DNA of 64,000 nucleotides from Alphaproteobacteria bacterium. Lineage in GTDB: Bacteria > Pseudomonadota > Alphaproteobacteria > Bin95. The position numbers and the translations under genes were made by a program. The first letter of the stretch is position 1; each line of letters starts with the position of its first letter. The notes beneath the pieces were generated by a model that did no database searches, was not told the origin of the DNA, and saw nothing but the letters and a program-made list of their open reading frames with translations. Below, piece by piece: positions 20,780-29,215 of this stretch. The stretch covers positions 136,001 to 200,000 of the forward strand of contig CBDCQY010000002.1 in the NCBI GenBank assembly GCA_965220855.1, given 5' to 3'.

Positions 20780-23700
20780 TCAGTCCGGCGAGAATAGCGA
20801 CGCGGCCAGGCGGAACGCGTTGCGGCCGATGCGCTCGCCGATCAGGCGGCCCGGAATGTCGTCCGCCGGCGGGTGAATGCCGCCCCAGATGCGCGACAGG
20901 CTGCACTGGTCGGCGGCGTCGCGATAGGTGGCCCATTGCAGGACCATCGGGCGCGAGGGGCCGCGCTCGAAGGTCAGGAAATCGTCCGCCGGAATGCGGA
21001 AGTCGCTCATGCCGCCGGGAAAGAAGGCGTCGCCGGTAAGCGCGGTCAGCACCTCCGCCGCCGCGCGCGAGAAGGTCGAGTGGCCGGAGACATAGCCTGC
21101 GAAAGGCGGCGTCACGAAAGACGGGCGCTGATAGGGCCACCAGTTCTCGGCCAGAATCCAGCCGACGCCGGCCACATCCCGGTCCGGGTCGCGCACGAAT
21201 TGCGGGCCGCGCCAGGCGCGCAGCTTGATCTTGCCGACATGATCGCCGTACTCGCCCGCCAGCGAGTCGCCGGCCTGGATGAGTTCGATCAGGCCCTCCT
21301 CCAGCGCGATGCCGTCGGCGGAGAAGGACGGCAGCGCCGGATCGCTGGACTGCCCGCGCTCCGCCATGACGCGCAGCGCCGAGATCGGCCGCACATAATC
21401 GTACCAGCCCTTGATGCTCCAGGCGGCGATGGCGGCGTCGTGCAGGGCGCCGCCAAGGGCGAAATAGGCCTTCGCGTCCCACTCCAGCGGATCGAGCGCC
21501 GGACCGCGGCCGGCAAAGCGCGGCTCGAACAGCGCATGGTCGCGAACGGCGTTCAGGATCAGGAACCAGTGGCCGGGCGGGGTTTCCGACTCCGGCCCGT
21601 CGGCCCAGAATTCGGCCAGCACGCGGGCATAGTCGCCCCGCGCCGCCAGCTGCGGCCGGTAGGGCCGGCCGGTGGCGGGATTGACCGCATGGCCCGGACC
21701 GAGCGCGCCATCGCGGTAGAACTCGGGATAGTCCCGGAAGGCGCGCGGCAGCGCCCCCAGATTGCCGATGCCCGACGGCGCGATGTCGAGTTGCACGCCA
21801 TCGTCGGGCGAGAGCTGCGCCGACCAGCGGACCACCAGTCCGAAGCCCCAGCGATAGTCCGCCGGAAACGGGCCGCGCAGCCCCGGCGGCGGCCCCGGAT
21901 CGTCATAGACGGTGAAGGAGGCTCCGTCCCGCTCGCGCACCCTCCGGTCCTCGGGAGCGAGCGCGAAGGGCGTGACGCGGCCCCATTCCGGGGTCACGAA
22001 CGGCGGCTCCTCGCCGACCGAAAACCCCGCCTGATCGACCGACTCGGTGAGCGCCAGCGGCTGCCAGCGATCCGGGTGCTCCATGGTGGGATTGCCGGGC
22101 TCCTCCGGCCAGAGCGACTCGTTGACCGGCTTGTAGGCGAGGCTGCGATAGTCCTCGGCCTCATTGGCGCCGTCCTCGAGGCCGCGCTCGATATAGAAGC
22201 GCCCGAGACAGGCGCCGAAGCGCGCGGCGGCGCTTCGCGCCTCGGTGTCATGGCCGAGCGCGGCCATCAGCGTGTCGGCGTTGCGCGCCGTGGCCAAGGC
22301 GCCGGGCGAGGTGCGGAAGCGGTGGCGGATCAGCCGCCAGGCGGCGTGGCTCACCGCCTCCTCCCGCAGCCGGCGAACATCGCCGCCGACCGGCGGCGTC
22401 CCGCAGGGCGCCTCCGCCTCGCCGAACCGCCACGGCCGCGCCGTGTCGGACCAGGCCGCCCAGGCGTCATACATGGCGGCGGAGAGATGGAAGAGATTGC
22501 GGGCGTGGACGGTCGGGCGGGCGAAATCGTCGCGAATCGCCTGGAGCAGCAGCTCGATCCAGCGCCGCGCCACCGAAACGCCCGCCGCCGGCCCCGGCAG
22601 GAAATGGGCAAACGCCATGGCCGGGCCGTCGGGCATGATGGCGACCGTTTCGGGCGCGCGGGCGTCGCGGAAGCGCACGCCGCCCTCGCCGGTCCAGTGG
22701 CTGAAGCGGTAATGTCCGCGCGCCGGCTCGGCCCGGATCGCGACCGCCTCTCCCGGCCGCTTCGCCCCGCTGCCCTGCCCGCGCGCCACGCTCAGCATGA
22801 CGCCCTCGGGCGGCGGGGCGCGAATCGTGAGCCGGCGGTCGAGCGCGACACGGGCCAGCCGTGTGGCCTGCCCGTCGGGCCAGCGCACCTCCACCGAGGC
22901 CGCCTCGTCCGCGCCCAGCCCGAAATGCAGCACCGGCGGCGCCTGCGAGAGATAGGAGCCGCCGAGGCGCATCTCCTGCAGCTGGCTGCCCGACGCCGAG
23001 CGCACCGTCACCCGCGCGCCGATGCCGGCCGGATTGTCGGGGCCGCCGGCGAGCGCGATCGCCAGCCAGCGATTGTCGTTGTCGAGCGCATTGGCGTAGA
23101 CGGTCGGCGCGGCGGCATGGTTGGCGATGAAGATATCGACCCGTCCGTCGCCGTCATGGTCGGCGCAGATCGCGCCCCGGCCCTGGCCGGTGTGGCGGAT
23201 GCCGAGTTCCGCCGCCCGCTCCGTAAAGCCGCCCGCGCCGTCGGACATGAACAGGCGCGAGGGGTCGATGGCGAATTCGCCCTCGCGTTCGGCGTCGCCG
23301 GGGCCGCTGTCGGCGAGGTCGTGGGGCCAGCCATTGGTCAGGAACAGGTCGGCATGGCCGTCATTGTCGAAATCCGCCCAGCAGGCGCCCCAGCCCCAGC
23401 CGCCGTCGCGCACCCCCGCCGGCCCGGTCGCATTCTCGAAGCGCCCGTCGCCGAGATTGCGATAGAGGCGGTTGCCGGTCGAGCCGAAGGAGGAGCTGCC
23501 GTCCGGGTCGTAGATGCTGGTGACGAACCAGTCGATATCGCCGTCCCGGTCATAGTCGCCGGCGGCCGCGCCCATGCCGTTCTCGTCGTCGATGACGGCG
23601 CCGCCAATGTCCCGGAAAGCCGCGCCGGCCTCGTTGCGCAGCACCTGGCTGGTGCCGAAATCGCCCGCCAGCAGCAGGTCCGGGTCGCCGTCGCCGTCGA

Positions 23701-24409
23701 TGTCGGAGAAGATCGGCGTGAAGGAGAATTCGTAACCCAGGATGCTGTCCGGCAGGATGCCCGGCCGGATCTCCAGCAGGTGGCTCGCATCCTCGAAACG
23801 CCCCTTGCCGTCATTGCGCCAGAGCGCGTGCGCCGGCGGGCGCTGGCCGCTCCACACGCGCATCCAGTGCCCGAAGACGAGATCGAGATCGCCGTCGCCG
23901 TCATAGTCGCCGGCCGCCAGCGAGGTCGCGTGCCGGTGGCGCGGAATGCCGAAGCGCTCGCCGGCGTCCTCGAAGCCCCCCTGCTCGTTCTGGCGGAAAA
24001 TCTGCACGCCGGCCTTCTGGATCGAGATGAATTCCGCCCGCCCGTCCCGGTCGAGATCGAGGAAATAGCCCCCGCCATCCATCGCGGCCGGGCGGATGCC
24101 CCGATTGTCGGCGAGGCGAAGAAAGCGCTCGCCGTTCCAGCCGAACAGCCTGCCGGTTTCGCCCGCGCCATGGGCGACATAGAGTTCGAGGCGCCCGTCC
24201 CTGTCGATATCGACCAGCGCCAGCCCGCCATCCTCCGTCCGGAAGTAAATGTCCCCGTCGATCGCGTCGTCGGCGGGCGGCGGCACATGGTAGGCAAGGC
24301 CGAGGCGTTCGGTGACATTCACGAAGGCGCCCTCGGCCGCCGCCCCGCCGGCGAGCAGGCAGGCGAGCGCCGCAAGGCGGAAGATCGAGGGAGGATTTGC
24401 CGTCAGCAT
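20780..24409 (-). CDS. Secreted multidomain protein: N-terminal CRTAC1-family region (FG-GAP/VCBS repeats + UnbV/ASPIC domain), central InlB-B-repeat-like domain, C-terminal vanadium-dependent haloperoxidase / PAP2-superfamily domain
   Basis: Signal peptide MLTANPPSIFRLAALACLLAGGAAAEGA. Repeated DxDGDGxxD FG-GAP motifs. NRWLAIALAGG...GIGARVTVRSASGSQLQEMRLGGSYLSQAPPVLHFGLG matches UnbV_ASPIC. The C-terminal K-x6-RP (KGWYDYVRP), SGH (YVSGHST) and SRxxxGxHxxxD (SRIWGGIHPPADD) motifs, plus the ARRWIELLLQAIRDD helical start, point to a V-haloperoxidase. Confidence 0.8.
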   Translation of the reverse strand: MLTANPPSIFRLAALACLLAGGAAAEGAFVNVTERLGLAYHVPPPADDAIDGDIYFRTEDGGLALVDIDRDGRLELYVAHGAGETGRLFGWNGERFLRLADNRGIRPAAMDGGGYFLDLDRDGRAEFISIQKAGVQIFRQNEQGGFEDAGERFGIPRHRHATSLAAGDYDGDGDLDLVFGHWMRVWSGQRPPAHALWRNDGKGRFEDASHLLEIRPGILPDSILGYEFSFTPIFSDIDGDGDPDLLLAGDFGTSQVLRNEAGAAFRDIGGAVIDDENGMGAAAGDYDRDGDIDWFVTSIYDPDGSSSFGSTGNRLYRNLGDGRFENATGPAGVRDGGWGWGACWADFDNDGHADLFLTNGWPHDLADSGPGDAEREGEFAIDPSRLFMSDGAGGFTERAAELGIRHTGQGRGAICADHDGDGRVDIFIANHAAAPTVYANALDNDNRWLAIALAGGPDNPAGIGARVTVRSASGSQLQEMRLGGSYLSQAPPVLHFGLGADEAASVEVRWPDGQATRLARVALDRRLTIRAPPPEGVMLSVARGQGSGAKRPGEAVAIRAEPARGHYRFSHWTGEGGVRFRDARAPETVAIMPDGPAMAFAHFLPGPAAGVSVARRWIELLLQAIRDDFARPTVHARNLFHLSAAMYDAWAAWSDTARPWRFGEAEAPCGTPPVGGDVRRLREEAVSHAAWRLIRHRFRTSPGALATARNADTLMAALGHDTEARSAAARFGACLGRFYIERGLEDGANEAEDYRSLAYKPVNESLWPEEPGNPTMEHPDRWQPLALTESVDQAGFSVGEEPPFVTPEWGRVTPFALAPEDRRVRERDGASFTVYDDPGPPPGLRGPFPADYRWGFGLVVRWSAQLSPDDGVQLDIAPSGIGNLGALPRAFRDYPEFYRDGALGPGHAVNPATGRPYRPQLAARGDYARVLAEFWADGPESETPPGHWFLILNAVRDHALFEPRFAGRGPALDPLEWDAKAYFALGGALHDAAIAAWSIKGWYDYVRPISALRVMAERGQSSDPALPSFSADGIALEEGLIELIQAGDSLAGEYGDHVGKIKLRAWRGPQFVRDPDRDVAGVGWILAENWWPYQRPSFVTPPFAGYVSGHSTFSRAAAEVLTALTGDAFFPGGMSDFRIPADDFLTFERGPSRPMVLQWATYRDAADQCSLSRIWGGIHPPADDIPGRLIGERIGRNAFRLAASLFSPD

Positions 24410-24511: not shown

Positions 24512-25147
24512 TCAACAAGGTTCGACGCTCAACTCCATGGTGCGTGAGAGGCAGAAGTCCAGATCGTCCGCATGGTAGGAGCGCACCTCCATTTCCACAT
24601 TGGCGCTCTCGCCGTCCCGCTCGCAGGACGCCTCGAAACGGCAACCGGGAGACTCGTGTTCGAACTCCCCGGCCGGCAACACCGAGACCGTCGTCAAGTC
24701 GCAGTAATCGTTCGCGGCGCTCGCCTCGAATCCCGTCCGGCATCTGGCTTCCGTGACGAAGGTAGACTTGTCGCAAATCGAATCGTTGATGTTGCAACAA
24801 TAGATGTCCGCAATCGTGTTGGAGGTCGGAAACACCGTTGTGTTTGTGGGCGTCGCTGCGGTCAGGGTCACTCTCTTGGCCGCGCTGCTTTCGTTTTCCA
24901 TGGTATACAGCAGTTCGACGGTCGCATAGTCGGTGCAGACATTCGTGACCGTCACAGTATGAGTTGTAGGCGGCGTGACCTCGCCGCCATTGAGAGTCTG
25001 CGCGACCGACAAGCAGCCAGCATTATCGTGGTGCGTCGCATTGGGGCATTGGGACGAATCTAGCGCCACGGCCGGATACGCCGCCAGTAGGCCCGCCAGC
25101 GCCGTCGTCGCGATGCGCGTCATTGCGCGCGCGATTGCAAATGTCAT
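24512..25147 (-). CDS. Secreted cysteine-rich protein of unknown function (12 Cys; founding copy of a two-member family in this window)
   Basis: The C-terminal 211 aa of ORF 24512..26485(-). Start MTFAIARAMTRIATTALAGLLAAYPAVALD (signal peptide) preceded by an AAGGGGG RBS. An alternative start lies 13 codons upstream. Its G+C is lower than the flanks. It is a clear paralog of the 60646..61218 protein. Confidence 0.65.
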   Translation of the reverse strand: MTFAIARAMTRIATTALAGLLAAYPAVALDSSQCPNATHHDNAGCLSVAQTLNGGEVTPPTTHTVTVTNVCTDYATVELLYTMENESSAAKRVTLTAATPTNTTVFPTSNTIADIYCCNINDSICDKSTFVTEARCRTGFEASAANDYCDLTTVSVLPAGEFEHESPGCRFEASCERDGESANVEMEVRSYHADDLDFCLSRTMELSVEPC

Positions 25148-25189
25148 GATTGCCCCCTTCACGGCTGTTGAATCGGCCTTTCCCATGAA

Positions 25190-25230: not shown

Positions 25231-25354
25231 CATGCGCCCTTATGCCGGTCGCACGGGATTTGCGCGTCGCTCGCGCCGTAGCGCGCCAAGGTCTCGCGTC
25301 GGCGCGCGCATCGGTGCTAGGCTGGCCGGAGGCGGGGTTGAGAGACATGAGGGG

Positions 25355-26752
25355 ATGCGGAACGCCGGCGCGCTGATTCTGGGCTTGATGCTGGGCGCGG
25401 TCGCCGCGCCGGCTGCTGGGCAGACGTCGCCCGACTCCGGTCCGGCGGAGATGGTGCTGACGCTGGACGAGACGATTCGGCTGGCGCTGCAGAACAGCCG
25501 CGCCCTCGTCGGCGCGCGGCTGTCGCGGGCCGAGCAGAAATTCTCGCTCGACATCGCCGAGGACCGCTACCGGCCGCAAGCCAGCATCAGCGCCTCCGCC
25601 AACGCCGCCAACCATGGCGACGAGACCGCCGAGGCCTCTTTCGGCCCCACCCTCAGGGTTCCGACCGGCGGCAATTTCAGCTTGAGCCTGGACAAGCCGC
25701 TCGCCGGCGAGCGGGACCGGTCGAGCGCCTACCGGCTGAGCTTCTCGCAACCGCTGCTGCGGGGCTTCGGCCCCGATATCGACACCGCGCCGCTGCGCAA
25801 GGCGCGGATGCAGGAGCGCATCAACGCCAGCTCCTATCGCAACCGCATCGCCGGCGTGGTGATCTCGGTCATCGGCGCCTACCGGTCGGTCGTCCGGGCG
25901 CAGCGCGCCATCACGATCAGTCGCGGCTCGCTGGAGCGCGCCGCGCGGCAGCTGGAGATCAACCGGGCGCTGATTCGCGCCGGGCGCCTGGCGGCGCGAG
26001 AAATCGTGCAGAGCGAGGCGGAGGTCGCCAACCGCGAACTGTCGCTGATCGAAACCGAGAACAGCCTGCAATCGGCCAGATCCTCCCTCATCAACATTCT
26101 CGACATCGACACGCCGACCCGCATCCGCCTGGAGGAGGCGCTCGACGTGGAGCCGCTGCGCCCCGATCTGGAGGAGAGCATCGAGACGGCCTTCGCGCGG
26201 CGCACCGACCATCTGCAGGCGGTGCTCGGCGTCGATCGCGCCCGGATCGACCTCGGCGTCGCGCGGAACGCCCGGCTCTGGGACCTCCGGCTGAACGCCG
26301 GCATGTCGGGCCGCAGCGACGAGGCGCAGATCGACTATCGCGCCGGCCTGAACCTGACCATCCCGCTCACCGACCGGTCGCCCGACCTCGGCCTGCTGCG
26401 GGCGCAGAACGATCTGCGCCGCGCCGAGATGGCGCTCCAGGAGTCGCGCCAGGCGATTCGGATCGAGGTGCGCCAGGCGGTGCACGATGTCGAGGTGGGG
26501 CTGAGGAAGATCGAGCTGGCCCGAAAGTCCCGCGAGCTCGCGGAGCAGAAGCTCGACATCGAGCAGAAGAAGCTGGCCCAGGGGCTGACCTCGACATTCC
26601 GGCTCACACAGGTGGAAGACGATCTCGTTCGGGCGCAGAATGGTGAACTGGACTCCATTCTGTCCTATCTTAACGCCCTGACCTCGCTGGACAGGACGCT
26701 TGGCACCACGCTCGACCGCTGGGGCGTCGATGTCGAGAGGAGCGGGCAGTGA
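25355..26752 (+). CDS. TolC-family outer-membrane efflux/secretion channel
   Basis: Start at M42 of ORF 25232..26752 (MRNAGALILGLMLGAVAAPAAGQ signal peptide). Two-repeat OEP architecture (TIRLALQNSRAL..., ...LYRAQNDLRRAE...). GAGGGG RBS. Confidence 0.85.
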   Translation: MRNAGALILGLMLGAVAAPAAGQTSPDSGPAEMVLTLDETIRLALQNSRALVGARLSRAEQKFSLDIAEDRYRPQASISASANAANHGDETAEASFGPTLRVPTGGNFSLSLDKPLAGERDRSSAYRLSFSQPLLRGFGPDIDTAPLRKARMQERINASSYRNRIAGVVISVIGAYRSVVRAQRAITISRGSLERAARQLEINRALIRAGRLAAREIVQSEAEVANRELSLIETENSLQSARSSLINILDIDTPTRIRLEEALDVEPLRPDLEESIETAFARRTDHLQAVLGVDRARIDLGVARNARLWDLRLNAGMSGRSDEAQIDYRAGLNLTIPLTDRSPDLGLLRAQNDLRRAEMALQESRQAIRIEVRQAVHDVEVGLRKIELARKSRELAEQKLDIEQKKLAQGLTSTFRLTQVEDDLVRAQNGELDSILSYLNALTSLDRTLGTTLDRWGVDVERSGQ

Positions 26753-28524
26753 CCGACGCAGACGCGCCTTTCGACCGCAATATCCTCGACAACCTCCTGG
26801 ACGGGGTGGTGATCGTCGGGCTGGACGGCGTGCTGCGCACCGTCAATCCGGCGGCCGCCGCCATGTTCGGGCTGGAGCCGGAAGCCGTCGCCGGCAGGAC
26901 CTTCGTCGAGGTCTTCATCGCCATCGAGGGCTTCGACGAATTCACCCAGACGGTGCTGGACGCGGTCGCCGACCGCACCGAGGAGGGCCGGCGGGTCATC
27001 GGCGTGCGGCTCGGCGACGAGGACCGGTCGCTCACCGTGACCATCTCCTACATGGAAGCTCCCGACGGCGCCGCCAGCGTCATCGTGGTGCTGAGCGACA
27101 TCACCGAGATTCGCGAGCTGCGCGAGAGCCAGCTGCGCATGGCCCAGGCGATCGAGGAGCAGAACGCCGAACTGCAGCAGGCCTATCGCGACGTCGAGAA
27201 GACCAATGAGGAGCTGACCTCGACCCTGAAGAAAGTGCAGCTCGCGCGCGTGCTGGCGACGGTGGTGGTGATCGTGCTGTTTCTCGGCGTCGGCGGCTGG
27301 GGCTGGGGCGTATCGGGCCTCTTCGACGATTCGGACGATCCCGACCCCCTGCCGGTGGCGGAGGCCGGCGTTCCCGGCGAAGTGCGCACCGTGACGGTGC
27401 GTCCGCGCGCGTTCGACGCCACCGTTTCGCTGATCGGCCGTCTGGCGCCCTGGCGCCAGGTGCAGGTGGTCGCGCCCATCGCCGGCCATGTGCGCGAGGT
27501 GCTGTTCGACTATGGGCAGCAGGTCGCCGAGGGGGACCGGCTGGTGACGCTCGACACGGCGGCGCTCCGGCTCGAATATCAGCAAAGCGAGGTCGATTAT
27601 CGGAAGGCCCAGAACGCGCTCCGCGATATCGACAATTGGGAGAACGGCGCCGAGGTGTCCAATGCGCTGCGCTCCTACACCAAGGCCAAGATGGCGCTCG
27701 ACCAGCAGGACCACAAGCTCAGGACCTCCGCCTTTCTGCTGAAGGAGGGTCTGATCTCGGTCGAGGAGCACGAGGATCTGAAGCTCCGGCACGAGAACCA
27801 GCTGCTCGACTTCGAGGCCATCGAGCAGGATCTGGCGGCGGCTCGCGCCAGGGGCGGCGCCGAGGCGCGGCGGGTGGCGCAGCTGGAGTACGACAAGGCG
27901 GAGAACCGGTTCCGGACCCTGGAGCGCCAGCTGAAGATCGACAAGGTGACGGCGCCGATCGGCGGCGTCGCCCGGCCGCCGGGCCGCCTCGCCGCCGGGC
28001 TGGCCCCCGGCCAGGAGCTCAAGCAGGGCGACGCGCTGCTGCGGATCGCCGACTTCACCCGCATGTCGGTGGAGGCCCAGGTCGATGAGGTGGAGGTCTC
28101 GACCATCCAGGTCGGCCAGCCGGTGACCGTCACCGGCGACGCCTTTCCCGGCTTGCAGATTCCCGGCGCGATCAGCCAGGTCTCCGCCCAGGCGGTCAAG
28201 GCGTCCGGCCGGGGGCCGGCGCGCTTTGCGATCGTCGCCACGCTCGAACCGCTCGAGGACGAGCACAAGCGGCTGGTGCGCGCCGGCATGTCGGCGCGGA
28301 TGCGCATCGTGACCTACAGCAATCCCTCCGCCCTGATGGTGCCGCTCGACGCCGTGGAGGGCGGCGGCGATGGCAAGGCGTGGCTCCGCGTGCGCGACGC
28401 CGCCACCGGCGAGATCGAGGAGCGGGAGGTCCGGGTCGGGCTGACCACGCAGCGCTCCGTGGAGGTGACCGGCGGCCTCGAAAGCGGCGCCGAGGTGGTG
28501 CTGCCGTCGTCGGCGGACGGATAG
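26749..28524 (+). CDS. HlyD-family periplasmic adaptor (membrane fusion protein) with an N-terminal cytoplasmic PAS domain
   Basis: Residues about 10-130 form a PAS fold (ILDNLLDGVVIVGLDGVLRTVNPAAAAMFGL...), followed by a coiled coil, a TM helix (VLATVVVIVLFLGVGGWGWGV), then MFP lipoyl/beta-barrel segments (VTAPIGGV..., QVGQPVTVTGDAFPG...). GTGA overlap with tolC. Confidence 0.8.
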   Translation: MTDADAPFDRNILDNLLDGVVIVGLDGVLRTVNPAAAAMFGLEPEAVAGRTFVEVFIAIEGFDEFTQTVLDAVADRTEEGRRVIGVRLGDEDRSLTVTISYMEAPDGAASVIVVLSDITEIRELRESQLRMAQAIEEQNAELQQAYRDVEKTNEELTSTLKKVQLARVLATVVVIVLFLGVGGWGWGVSGLFDDSDDPDPLPVAEAGVPGEVRTVTVRPRAFDATVSLIGRLAPWRQVQVVAPIAGHVREVLFDYGQQVAEGDRLVTLDTAALRLEYQQSEVDYRKAQNALRDIDNWENGAEVSNALRSYTKAKMALDQQDHKLRTSAFLLKEGLISVEEHEDLKLRHENQLLDFEAIEQDLAAARARGGAEARRVAQLEYDKAENRFRTLERQLKIDKVTAPIGGVARPPGRLAAGLAPGQELKQGDALLRIADFTRMSVEAQVDEVEVSTIQVGQPVTVTGDAFPGLQIPGAISQVSAQAVKASGRGPARFAIVATLEPLEDEHKRLVRAGMSARMRIVTYSNPSALMVPLDAVEGGGDGKAWLRVRDAATGEIEEREVRVGLTTQRSVEVTGGLESGAEVVLPSSADG

Positions 28525-28531
28525 GCGGGCC

Positions 28532-29215
28532 ATGCTGCAACTGGTCGGTATCGAGAAGTCCTTCATGCTGGGCTCGGTGGAGATCAAGGTCCTGCGGGGC
28601 GTCGATCTCGAAGTGGCGGAAGGCGACTTCCTGTCGATCATGGGGCCGTCCGGCAGCGGCAAGTCCACGCTGATGAACATTATCGGGCTGCTCGGCCGCC
28701 CGACCGCCGGCGCCTATCTGCTGCATGGCAGCGATGTGTGGTCGATGAACGACGATCAGCTGTCGGCCTTTCGCAACCGCCAGATCGGCTTCGTGTTCCA
28801 GTCCTTCAACCTGATGCCCTATCTGACGGCGCTGGAGAATGTCGGCCTGTCGCTGGTCTATCGGGGCGTCGGCGCCCGCGAGGCGAAGCGCCGGTCGATG
28901 GCCATGCTGGAAAAGGTCGGCATGGGAGACCGGACCGACCATCTGCCGGGCCAGCTATCGGGCGGCCAGAAGCAGCGGGTGGCGATCGCGCGGGCGTTGG
29001 TGGGGGAGCCGGCGGTGATTCTCGCCGACGAGCCGACCGGCGCGCTCGACACCGCCACGGCGGGCGAGGTGATGGAGCTGCTGATCCGGCTGAATGAGGA
29101 AGAGCGCATCACCATCGTCATCATCACGCACGATTCGGATGTGGCGGCGCAATGCCGGCGCCGGACGCGCATCAATGACGGCATGCTGGTCGAACCGCCG
29201 CCGCGCGCGGCCTGA
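28532..29215 (+). CDS. ABC transporter ATP-binding protein, MacB/LolD (ABC-type antimicrobial peptide) family
   Basis: GPSGSGKST Walker [16 protein letters not shown] signature, [11 protein letters not shown] Walker B. Confidence 0.9.

Follow-up and report, generated by a model that had tools for sequence, protein, structure and literature searches.

A rare family of putatively secreted twelve-cysteine proteins, one of them encoded beside a MacB-type exporter and a CRTAC1/haloperoxidase-like protein

Two genes in the 64-kb stretch of DNA analysed here (the window) encode, as judged from their sequences, true, though divergent, members of a family of secreted bacterial proteins that is rare, has 12 conserved cysteines and lacks annotation. 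One of them (gene A) holds what we call the cluster position, with an exporter on one side and the gene for a 1209-aa protein on the other; the second (gene B) is found on a single-gene islet of low G+C content. The family represents an unnamed domain with a confidently predicted fold and is without an entry in Pfam, NCBIfam or PDB.

Genes A and B and the twelve-cysteine family

The two genes and their parts are the following:

24512..25147, minus strand: gene A, secreted 211-aa protein with 12 cysteines (open reading frame and translation)
25064..25147, minus strand: signal peptide of gene A, residues 1–28, MTFAIARAMTRIATTALAGLLAAYPAVA, then LD... (read from the sequence)
24758..25063, minus strand: N-terminal half of gene A with Cys 1–6, predicted beta-sandwich and CC motif
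24515..24757, minus strand: C-terminal half of gene A with Cys 7–12, predicted short helices, three-stranded sheet and hairpin
60646..61218, plus strand: gene B, secreted 190-aa protein with the 12 cysteines, on a single-gene low-G+C islet (open reading frame)
60646..60723, plus strand: signal peptide of gene B, residues 1–26, then QE... (read from the sequence; aligned by BLASTP with the signal peptide of gene A)

Both open reading frames exist where the original prediction had placed them, and the four motif pairs that it quoted (e.g., VTNVCTDYATV in gene A) are all found verbatim in the two genes. In a formal alignment by BLASTP, A and B score 60 bits (E = 3e-16) with 28% identity over 178 residues, and an HMM made from 40 other family members, from which A and B were excluded, recovers gene B with E = 5e-28 and gene A with E = 5e-17 when the database size is set to 1.84e9. 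The similarity of A and B is therefore far above chance. The signal peptide of gene A has a basic n-region, a hydrophobic core and an AxA cleavage motif. A Shine-Dalgarno-like site, GAAGGGGG, at 25160..25153 favours 25147 as the start of gene A; Met9 (25123), at which the alignment with gene B begins, is an alternative start. For gene B a GAGGAG-rich site is present at 60633..60644. Its product contains 14 cysteines; two of these belong to the signal peptide, which leaves 12 for the mature protein. Simple scans for promoters and terminators around both genes found none, and an Rfam search of the window gave no match.

An exhaustive search among 1.84 billion representatives yielded 69 clusters of the family, the members of which are almost all 190–220 aa in length with a mature domain of approximately 165 residues, and all of which begin as gene A does, with a signal peptide. 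The cysteine framework that had been described as conserved between A and B turned out to be family-wide: exactly 12 cysteines are found in 42 of the 69 cluster representatives, and all 11 tracked Cys columns are kept in 99 of the 130 aligned domains. Twelve conserved cysteines imply six disulfides and would imply Dsb-dependent folding. A and B both show the family signature, which is a signal peptide followed by C-x10-12-C ... CC-x6-C ... C-x5-C ... C-x8-11-C, and the HMM-guided alignment shows both of them with Cys in 10 of the 11 tracked columns; the local alignment of A and B does not reach the first of these columns, but its Cys is nonetheless present in both sequences. A lipoprotein status was considered and rejected, the position −3 to the first Cys being mostly polar or charged and this Cys being a conserved disulfide partner.

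Gene A is the most divergent member, with 20–25% identity to the others. Canonical members have in addition to the cysteines the motifs W-x-N, G-x-VVAKVD and CC-x-DLSDLCN-x-SD, the most conserved parts of which, VVAKVD and CCKDLSDLCNKSD, are lost in A and B, so that the function of these two may differ from that of canonical members. At the corresponding sites gene A has VELLYT and CCNINDSICDKST, and gene B has VIALVR in place of VVAKVD and keeps WKN.

That no known family would be found was borne out by sequence searches against Pfam, NCBIfam, PHROGs, PADLOC and PDB, which gave no family match, and a literature search found no description of such a 12-Cys family. In a word-indexed homology search the sole match to gene A was its twin P0001, a 99%-identical copy in a related assembly, and gene B had no match because it is annotated nowhere. 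A first genome scan with patterns from A and B found nothing, the 43-sequence family alignment was too diverse for the design of search patterns, and patterns of the CC[KR]DLSDL(C) and VVAKVD type confirmed no relative among IMG/VR viral and JGI metagenome contigs. The family has gone unseen in part because gene callers miss its low-G+C members; gene B, for example, is uncalled in a public assembly. The one named organism among the carriers is a cyanobacterial symbiont of sponges, and the metaMDBG style of the contig names is compatible with sponge genome notes; the family may thus be associated with a host, probably a sponge. If this is true, it is a candidate for a repertoire by which symbiont and host recognize or adhere to each other.

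Copies, mobile surroundings and constraint

The original prediction spoke of two divergent paralogs, which are indeed significantly related but are not just two: four further copies lie just outside the window, and the genome thus carries at least six. As had been claimed, both genes have a lower G+C content (gene A, 0.597, with GC3 of 0.75; gene B, 0.494, with GC3 of 0.58) than the window (0.706), and in every locus checked the family genes are below their flanks in G+C. Tandem arrays, pseudogene fragments and IS, recombinase or prophage-like neighbours are common at family loci, and several loci lie amid transposase, recombinase, toxin-antitoxin or prophage-like genes, which agrees with the mobile character proposed earlier. 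The gap that holds gene B is 800 bp wide and is bordered by genes for an alpha/beta hydrolase and an Opp-type ATPase; the flanks of gene B contain no convincing repeats or shared sequences that would mark a cassette. The tandem copies of locus L012 have dN/dS ratios of 0.86–1.0 with all 12 cysteines kept and the C-terminal half as the variable part. It should be noted that a dN/dS near 1 is equally expected under relaxed constraint. The dispersed low-G+C copies (gene B and the array past the window) may be duplicated, horizontally mobile and fast-diversifying variants of one module.

These properties also bear on the question whether the open reading frames are leftovers of mobile DNA, decaying or without function, in which the cysteine pattern serves no purpose today. 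Pseudogene fragments of the family exist, A and B have an atypical composition and are without the main non-cysteine motifs, and the public assembly (ERZ26695471 contig_17) has no gene call for gene B, all of which a remnant would explain. However, that assembly contains gene B as a 100% identical copy, gene A differs between strains by 6 synonymous and 3 non-synonymous substitutions, both reading frames are unbroken, each with a Shine-Dalgarno-like site and a signal peptide, none of the 12 cysteines is missing although identity to relatives is only 20–32%, and the profile E-values given above are low. We consider decay to be highly improbable.

The exporter, the large neighbour and a possible route out of the cell

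The genes flanking gene A are the following:

20780..24409, minus strand: secreted 1209-aa protein with FG-GAP/ASPIC (CRTAC1-like) repeats and a C-terminal vanadium-haloperoxidase-like domain (Pfam FG-GAP_3, UnbV_ASPIC, VCPO_2nd)
25355..26752, plus strand: TolC-like outer-membrane factor, divergent from gene A (Pfam OEP, NCBIfam TolC family); the start is that of the L001 gene call, the open reading frame itself opens at 25232
26749..28524, plus strand: membrane-fusion (periplasmic adaptor) protein with N-terminal PAS domain (Pfam PAS/PAS_4 and HlyD_3/HlyD_D23; NCBIfam RND_mfp / MacA-like)
28532..29215, plus strand: ABC ATPase of the MacB/LolD type (NCBIfam best matches LolD, MacB, DarD; Pfam ABC_tran)
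29234..30436, plus strand: MacB-type permease with MacB periplasmic core domain and FtsX (Pfam MacB_PCD, FtsX; NCBIfam MacB)

The gene for the 1209-aa protein starts 102 bp downstream of gene A on the same strand, a linkage not mentioned in the original prediction. The protein matches CRTAC1 (PDB 9etn, E = 1.8e-22) and a vanadium haloperoxidase (PDB 9l8x, E = 1e-9), and homologs with 65–70% identity adjoin family genes in L006/L010, L012 and L014; its pairing with the 12-Cys family is conserved. The exporter beside gene A, which had been called dedicated-looking, is real, and the triad of exporter, family gene and large neighbour recurs elsewhere. The family is linked to the exporter at three loci (window/L001, L012 and L014) in two arrangements. 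In window/L001 the exporter is divergent from gene A and the large protein gene follows A, and L012 is arranged likewise but has three family genes in tandem. In L014 the genes for OEP, PAS-MFP, ABC ATPase, MacB permease and family protein follow in this order and are convergent with the large protein gene. L006/L010 have only family genes and fragments, which flank the large protein on both sides. The PAS-adaptor fusion is also present in L012 and L014, and among the four genomes with the cluster protein identities are only 43–71%. Most family loci (L002, L004, L005, L007, L008, L011, L013 and gene B) lie apart from any exporter or large partner, and the triad could therefore be inherited synteny combined with an insertion hotspot. 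Its recurrence suggests a testable new module of secretion and host interaction.

The explanation that we tentatively prefer, and hold to be quite possible as a whole, is that the 12-Cys proteins are exported via Sec, folded with formation of disulfides and released by the adjacent pump as extracellular binding modules. The signal peptide would route the protein via Sec, the protein would be oxidized and fold in the periplasm, and the co-encoded pump of PAS-adaptor, MacB-type ABC protein and TolC-like factor would then, by analogy with known systems, expel it across the outer membrane. Outside the cell it could serve as a stable module for binding a ligand, most likely a glycan or a matrix component, and the co-encoded, secreted CRTAC1-like/vanadium-haloperoxidase-like protein may work alongside it. 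The analogy is to MacB-type tripartite pumps, which pick up their cargo in the periplasm, namely STII after Sec delivery and Dsb oxidation and the folded dispersin of 10 kDa; STII is exported by MacAB-TolC and dispersin by the Aat system (PMC5985334). As in these cases, the 12-Cys proteins have a Sec signal peptide (read from the sequences), and at the three loci named above they are linked to a pump. It has been proposed that folded cargo of MacB pumps can be no larger than dispersin (10 kDa, 20 Å wide; PMC5985334); with approximately 18 kDa the mature 12-Cys protein is above this bound, but the predicted two-lobe model could be narrow. The triad leads to the hypothesis that MacB-type pumps can secrete folded, disulfide-rich proteins much bigger than STII or dispersin.

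A second way to the surface may be taken by relatives in which the 12-Cys domain is the N-terminal head of Calx-beta proteins of 500–855 aa. The fusion to surface proteins implies an exposed location, and these relatives would instead show the domain at the tip of a large Calx-beta protein. They could not be confirmed as classical autotransporters: no C-terminal beta-barrel domain was recognized with Pfam, NCBIfam or PDB. The C-terminal 350–490 residues of P0037, P0046 and P0048 had no Pfam match (E up to 10), full-length P0037, P0040, P0046 and P0048 had no match to an autotransporter NCBIfam model, and P0037 had no PDB match beyond its Calx-beta domain. Two of the fused relatives end in F or W, so an unrecognized barrel is possible.

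Alternatively, the 12-Cys proteins might stay in the periplasm or bound to the envelope as accessory subunits of the CRTAC1-like/haloperoxidase-like protein, where they might bind its substrate or the matrix or protect the cell against hypohalous acid, and the pump would export a small halogenated product rather than the protein. In the window, L012 and L006, family genes lie directly upstream of the large gene and point in its direction; small molecules, for example macrolides, pyoverdine and glycolipids, are common cargo of MacB-type pumps (PMC5985334); a size of 18 kDa speaks against passage through TolC; and in L014 a gene for an FAD-dependent oxidase of the DAO family, which could supply peroxide, adjoins the large gene. 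In L014, however, the family gene comes after the permease gene, shares the strand of the exporter and runs convergently to the large gene, most family copies have no haloperoxidase-like gene nearby, the Calx-beta fusions imply exposure, and rapid diversification would be unusual in a fixed enzyme subunit. We judge such a subunit to be rather unlikely.

Less probable still, and in our view doubtful, is a role in antagonism, in which the secreted proteins would act against competitors or host enzymes as toxins, lectin-like bacteriocins or tendamistat-type inhibitors and would be shaped by an arms race and horizontal spread. A conserved disulfide framework with hypervariable loops and a dN/dS near 1, many copies in mobile contexts and the export of a toxin, STII, by MacAB-TolC would all be in line with this. 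But an immunity-like gene is not a consistent neighbour, motifs for catalysis or pore formation were not seen, no toxin, bacteriocin or defence model was matched, and the conserved partner is the CRTAC1/haloperoxidase-like protein rather than an immunity or target-related gene.

The preferred reading, release of a binding module by the pump, can be extended. In this more far-reaching form, which we think improbable, the triad would be a new dedicated two-step module for secretion and modification of the host matrix in animal-associated (probably sponge-associated) bacteria: a PAS-gated MacB-type pump would export folded, lectin-like 18-kDa proteins with six disulfides, well over the presumed size limit, these would direct the secreted vanadium haloperoxidase of CRTAC1-like type to glycans or matrix of the host or tether it there, and the dispersed paralogs would supply a repertoire of diversifying recognition proteins. 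The hypothesis drawn from the triad would also tie the 12-Cys protein to an extracellular vanadium-haloperoxidase-like enzyme with a propeller like that of a cartilage protein (CRTAC1).

Predicted fold and comparison with known systems

The model of a canonical member has a pLDDT of 88.8 and a pTM of 0.74; in that of gene A (pLDDT 78) the secondary-structure elements appear in the same order. The mature domain is predicted to consist of two sub-domains, a beta-sandwich weakly resembling Ig or tendamistat-like domains, followed by a lobe with a weak resemblance to a single cyanovirin-N (CVNH) repeat, which in gene A is the C-terminal half. The original prediction, according to which the fold was assignable to no known family, thus stands with respect to database families but has to be qualified by these two weak likenesses. 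In two members the C-terminal 52 residues align with the second repeat of cyanovirin-N with z = 6.0 and z = 5.1 versus shuffles, in the register C...AEC...NCNGTL versus C58...AEC73...NIDGTL. C8 and C10 are lost together in one member, as would be expected for a pair corresponding to the C58–C73 disulfide of cyanovirin-N, and from this we infer a C8–C10 disulfide matching CVNH. Of the six disulfides that would lock the domain into its two sub-domains, three are predicted for each half, and C11–C12 is a further predicted pair. The Pfam CVNH model had no match in A, B or any of the 43 members (E up to 10), hhalign of the family versus cyanovirin-N gave a probability of 1.6%, and Foldseek versus PDB returned only noise (best E = 0.078, TM below 0.27). 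The CVNH resemblance is limited to one lobe of approximately 52 residues.

With CVNH lectins (Pfam PF08881; PDB 5c8o, 1n02, 2jzj, 2l2f) the family thus has in common a Cys–Cys pair followed by N-x-[DN]-G-x-L. However, CVNH lectins have two tandem repeats of approximately 50 aa in a pseudo-symmetric, two-lobed fold, whereas the 12-Cys family has only one repeat, the lobe of which contains additional disulfides and is joined to an N-terminal sandwich of unrelated type. For this sandwich the systems of comparison are the small beta-sandwich binding domains of the tendamistat type or Ig-like (PDB 1bvn_T, 2ker). A compact and, if the models hold, very stable protein of a half-cyanovirin lobe and an Ig-like sandwich might be of use as a scaffold for binder engineering.

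Like the 12-Cys proteins, dispersin (Aap), CexE and STII are small, Sec-dependent and folded, and STII is also disulfide-bonded. The cargo of the MacB-type Aat and CexPABC pumps is, like gene A, encoded beside a TolC-like outer-membrane factor, an adaptor, an ABC ATPase and a MacB-type permease. The 12-Cys family differs in having no sequence similarity to dispersin, CexE or STII and in size (approximately 18 kDa with six disulfides, where dispersin has 10 kDa and STII 48 aa), and its clusters differ in having a PAS-domain adaptor and a CRTAC1/haloperoxidase-like gene; an AatD-like N-acyltransferase was not seen in them. With the small cysteine-rich effectors of eukaryotic symbionts and pathogens, a class and not homologs, the family shares the signal peptide, a conserved set of cysteines between loops that vary, expansion in particular lineages and a location in dynamic genome regions. 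The 12-Cys proteins are, however, bacterial, larger than most of these effectors, unrelated to them in sequence and linked to a Gram-negative tripartite pump.

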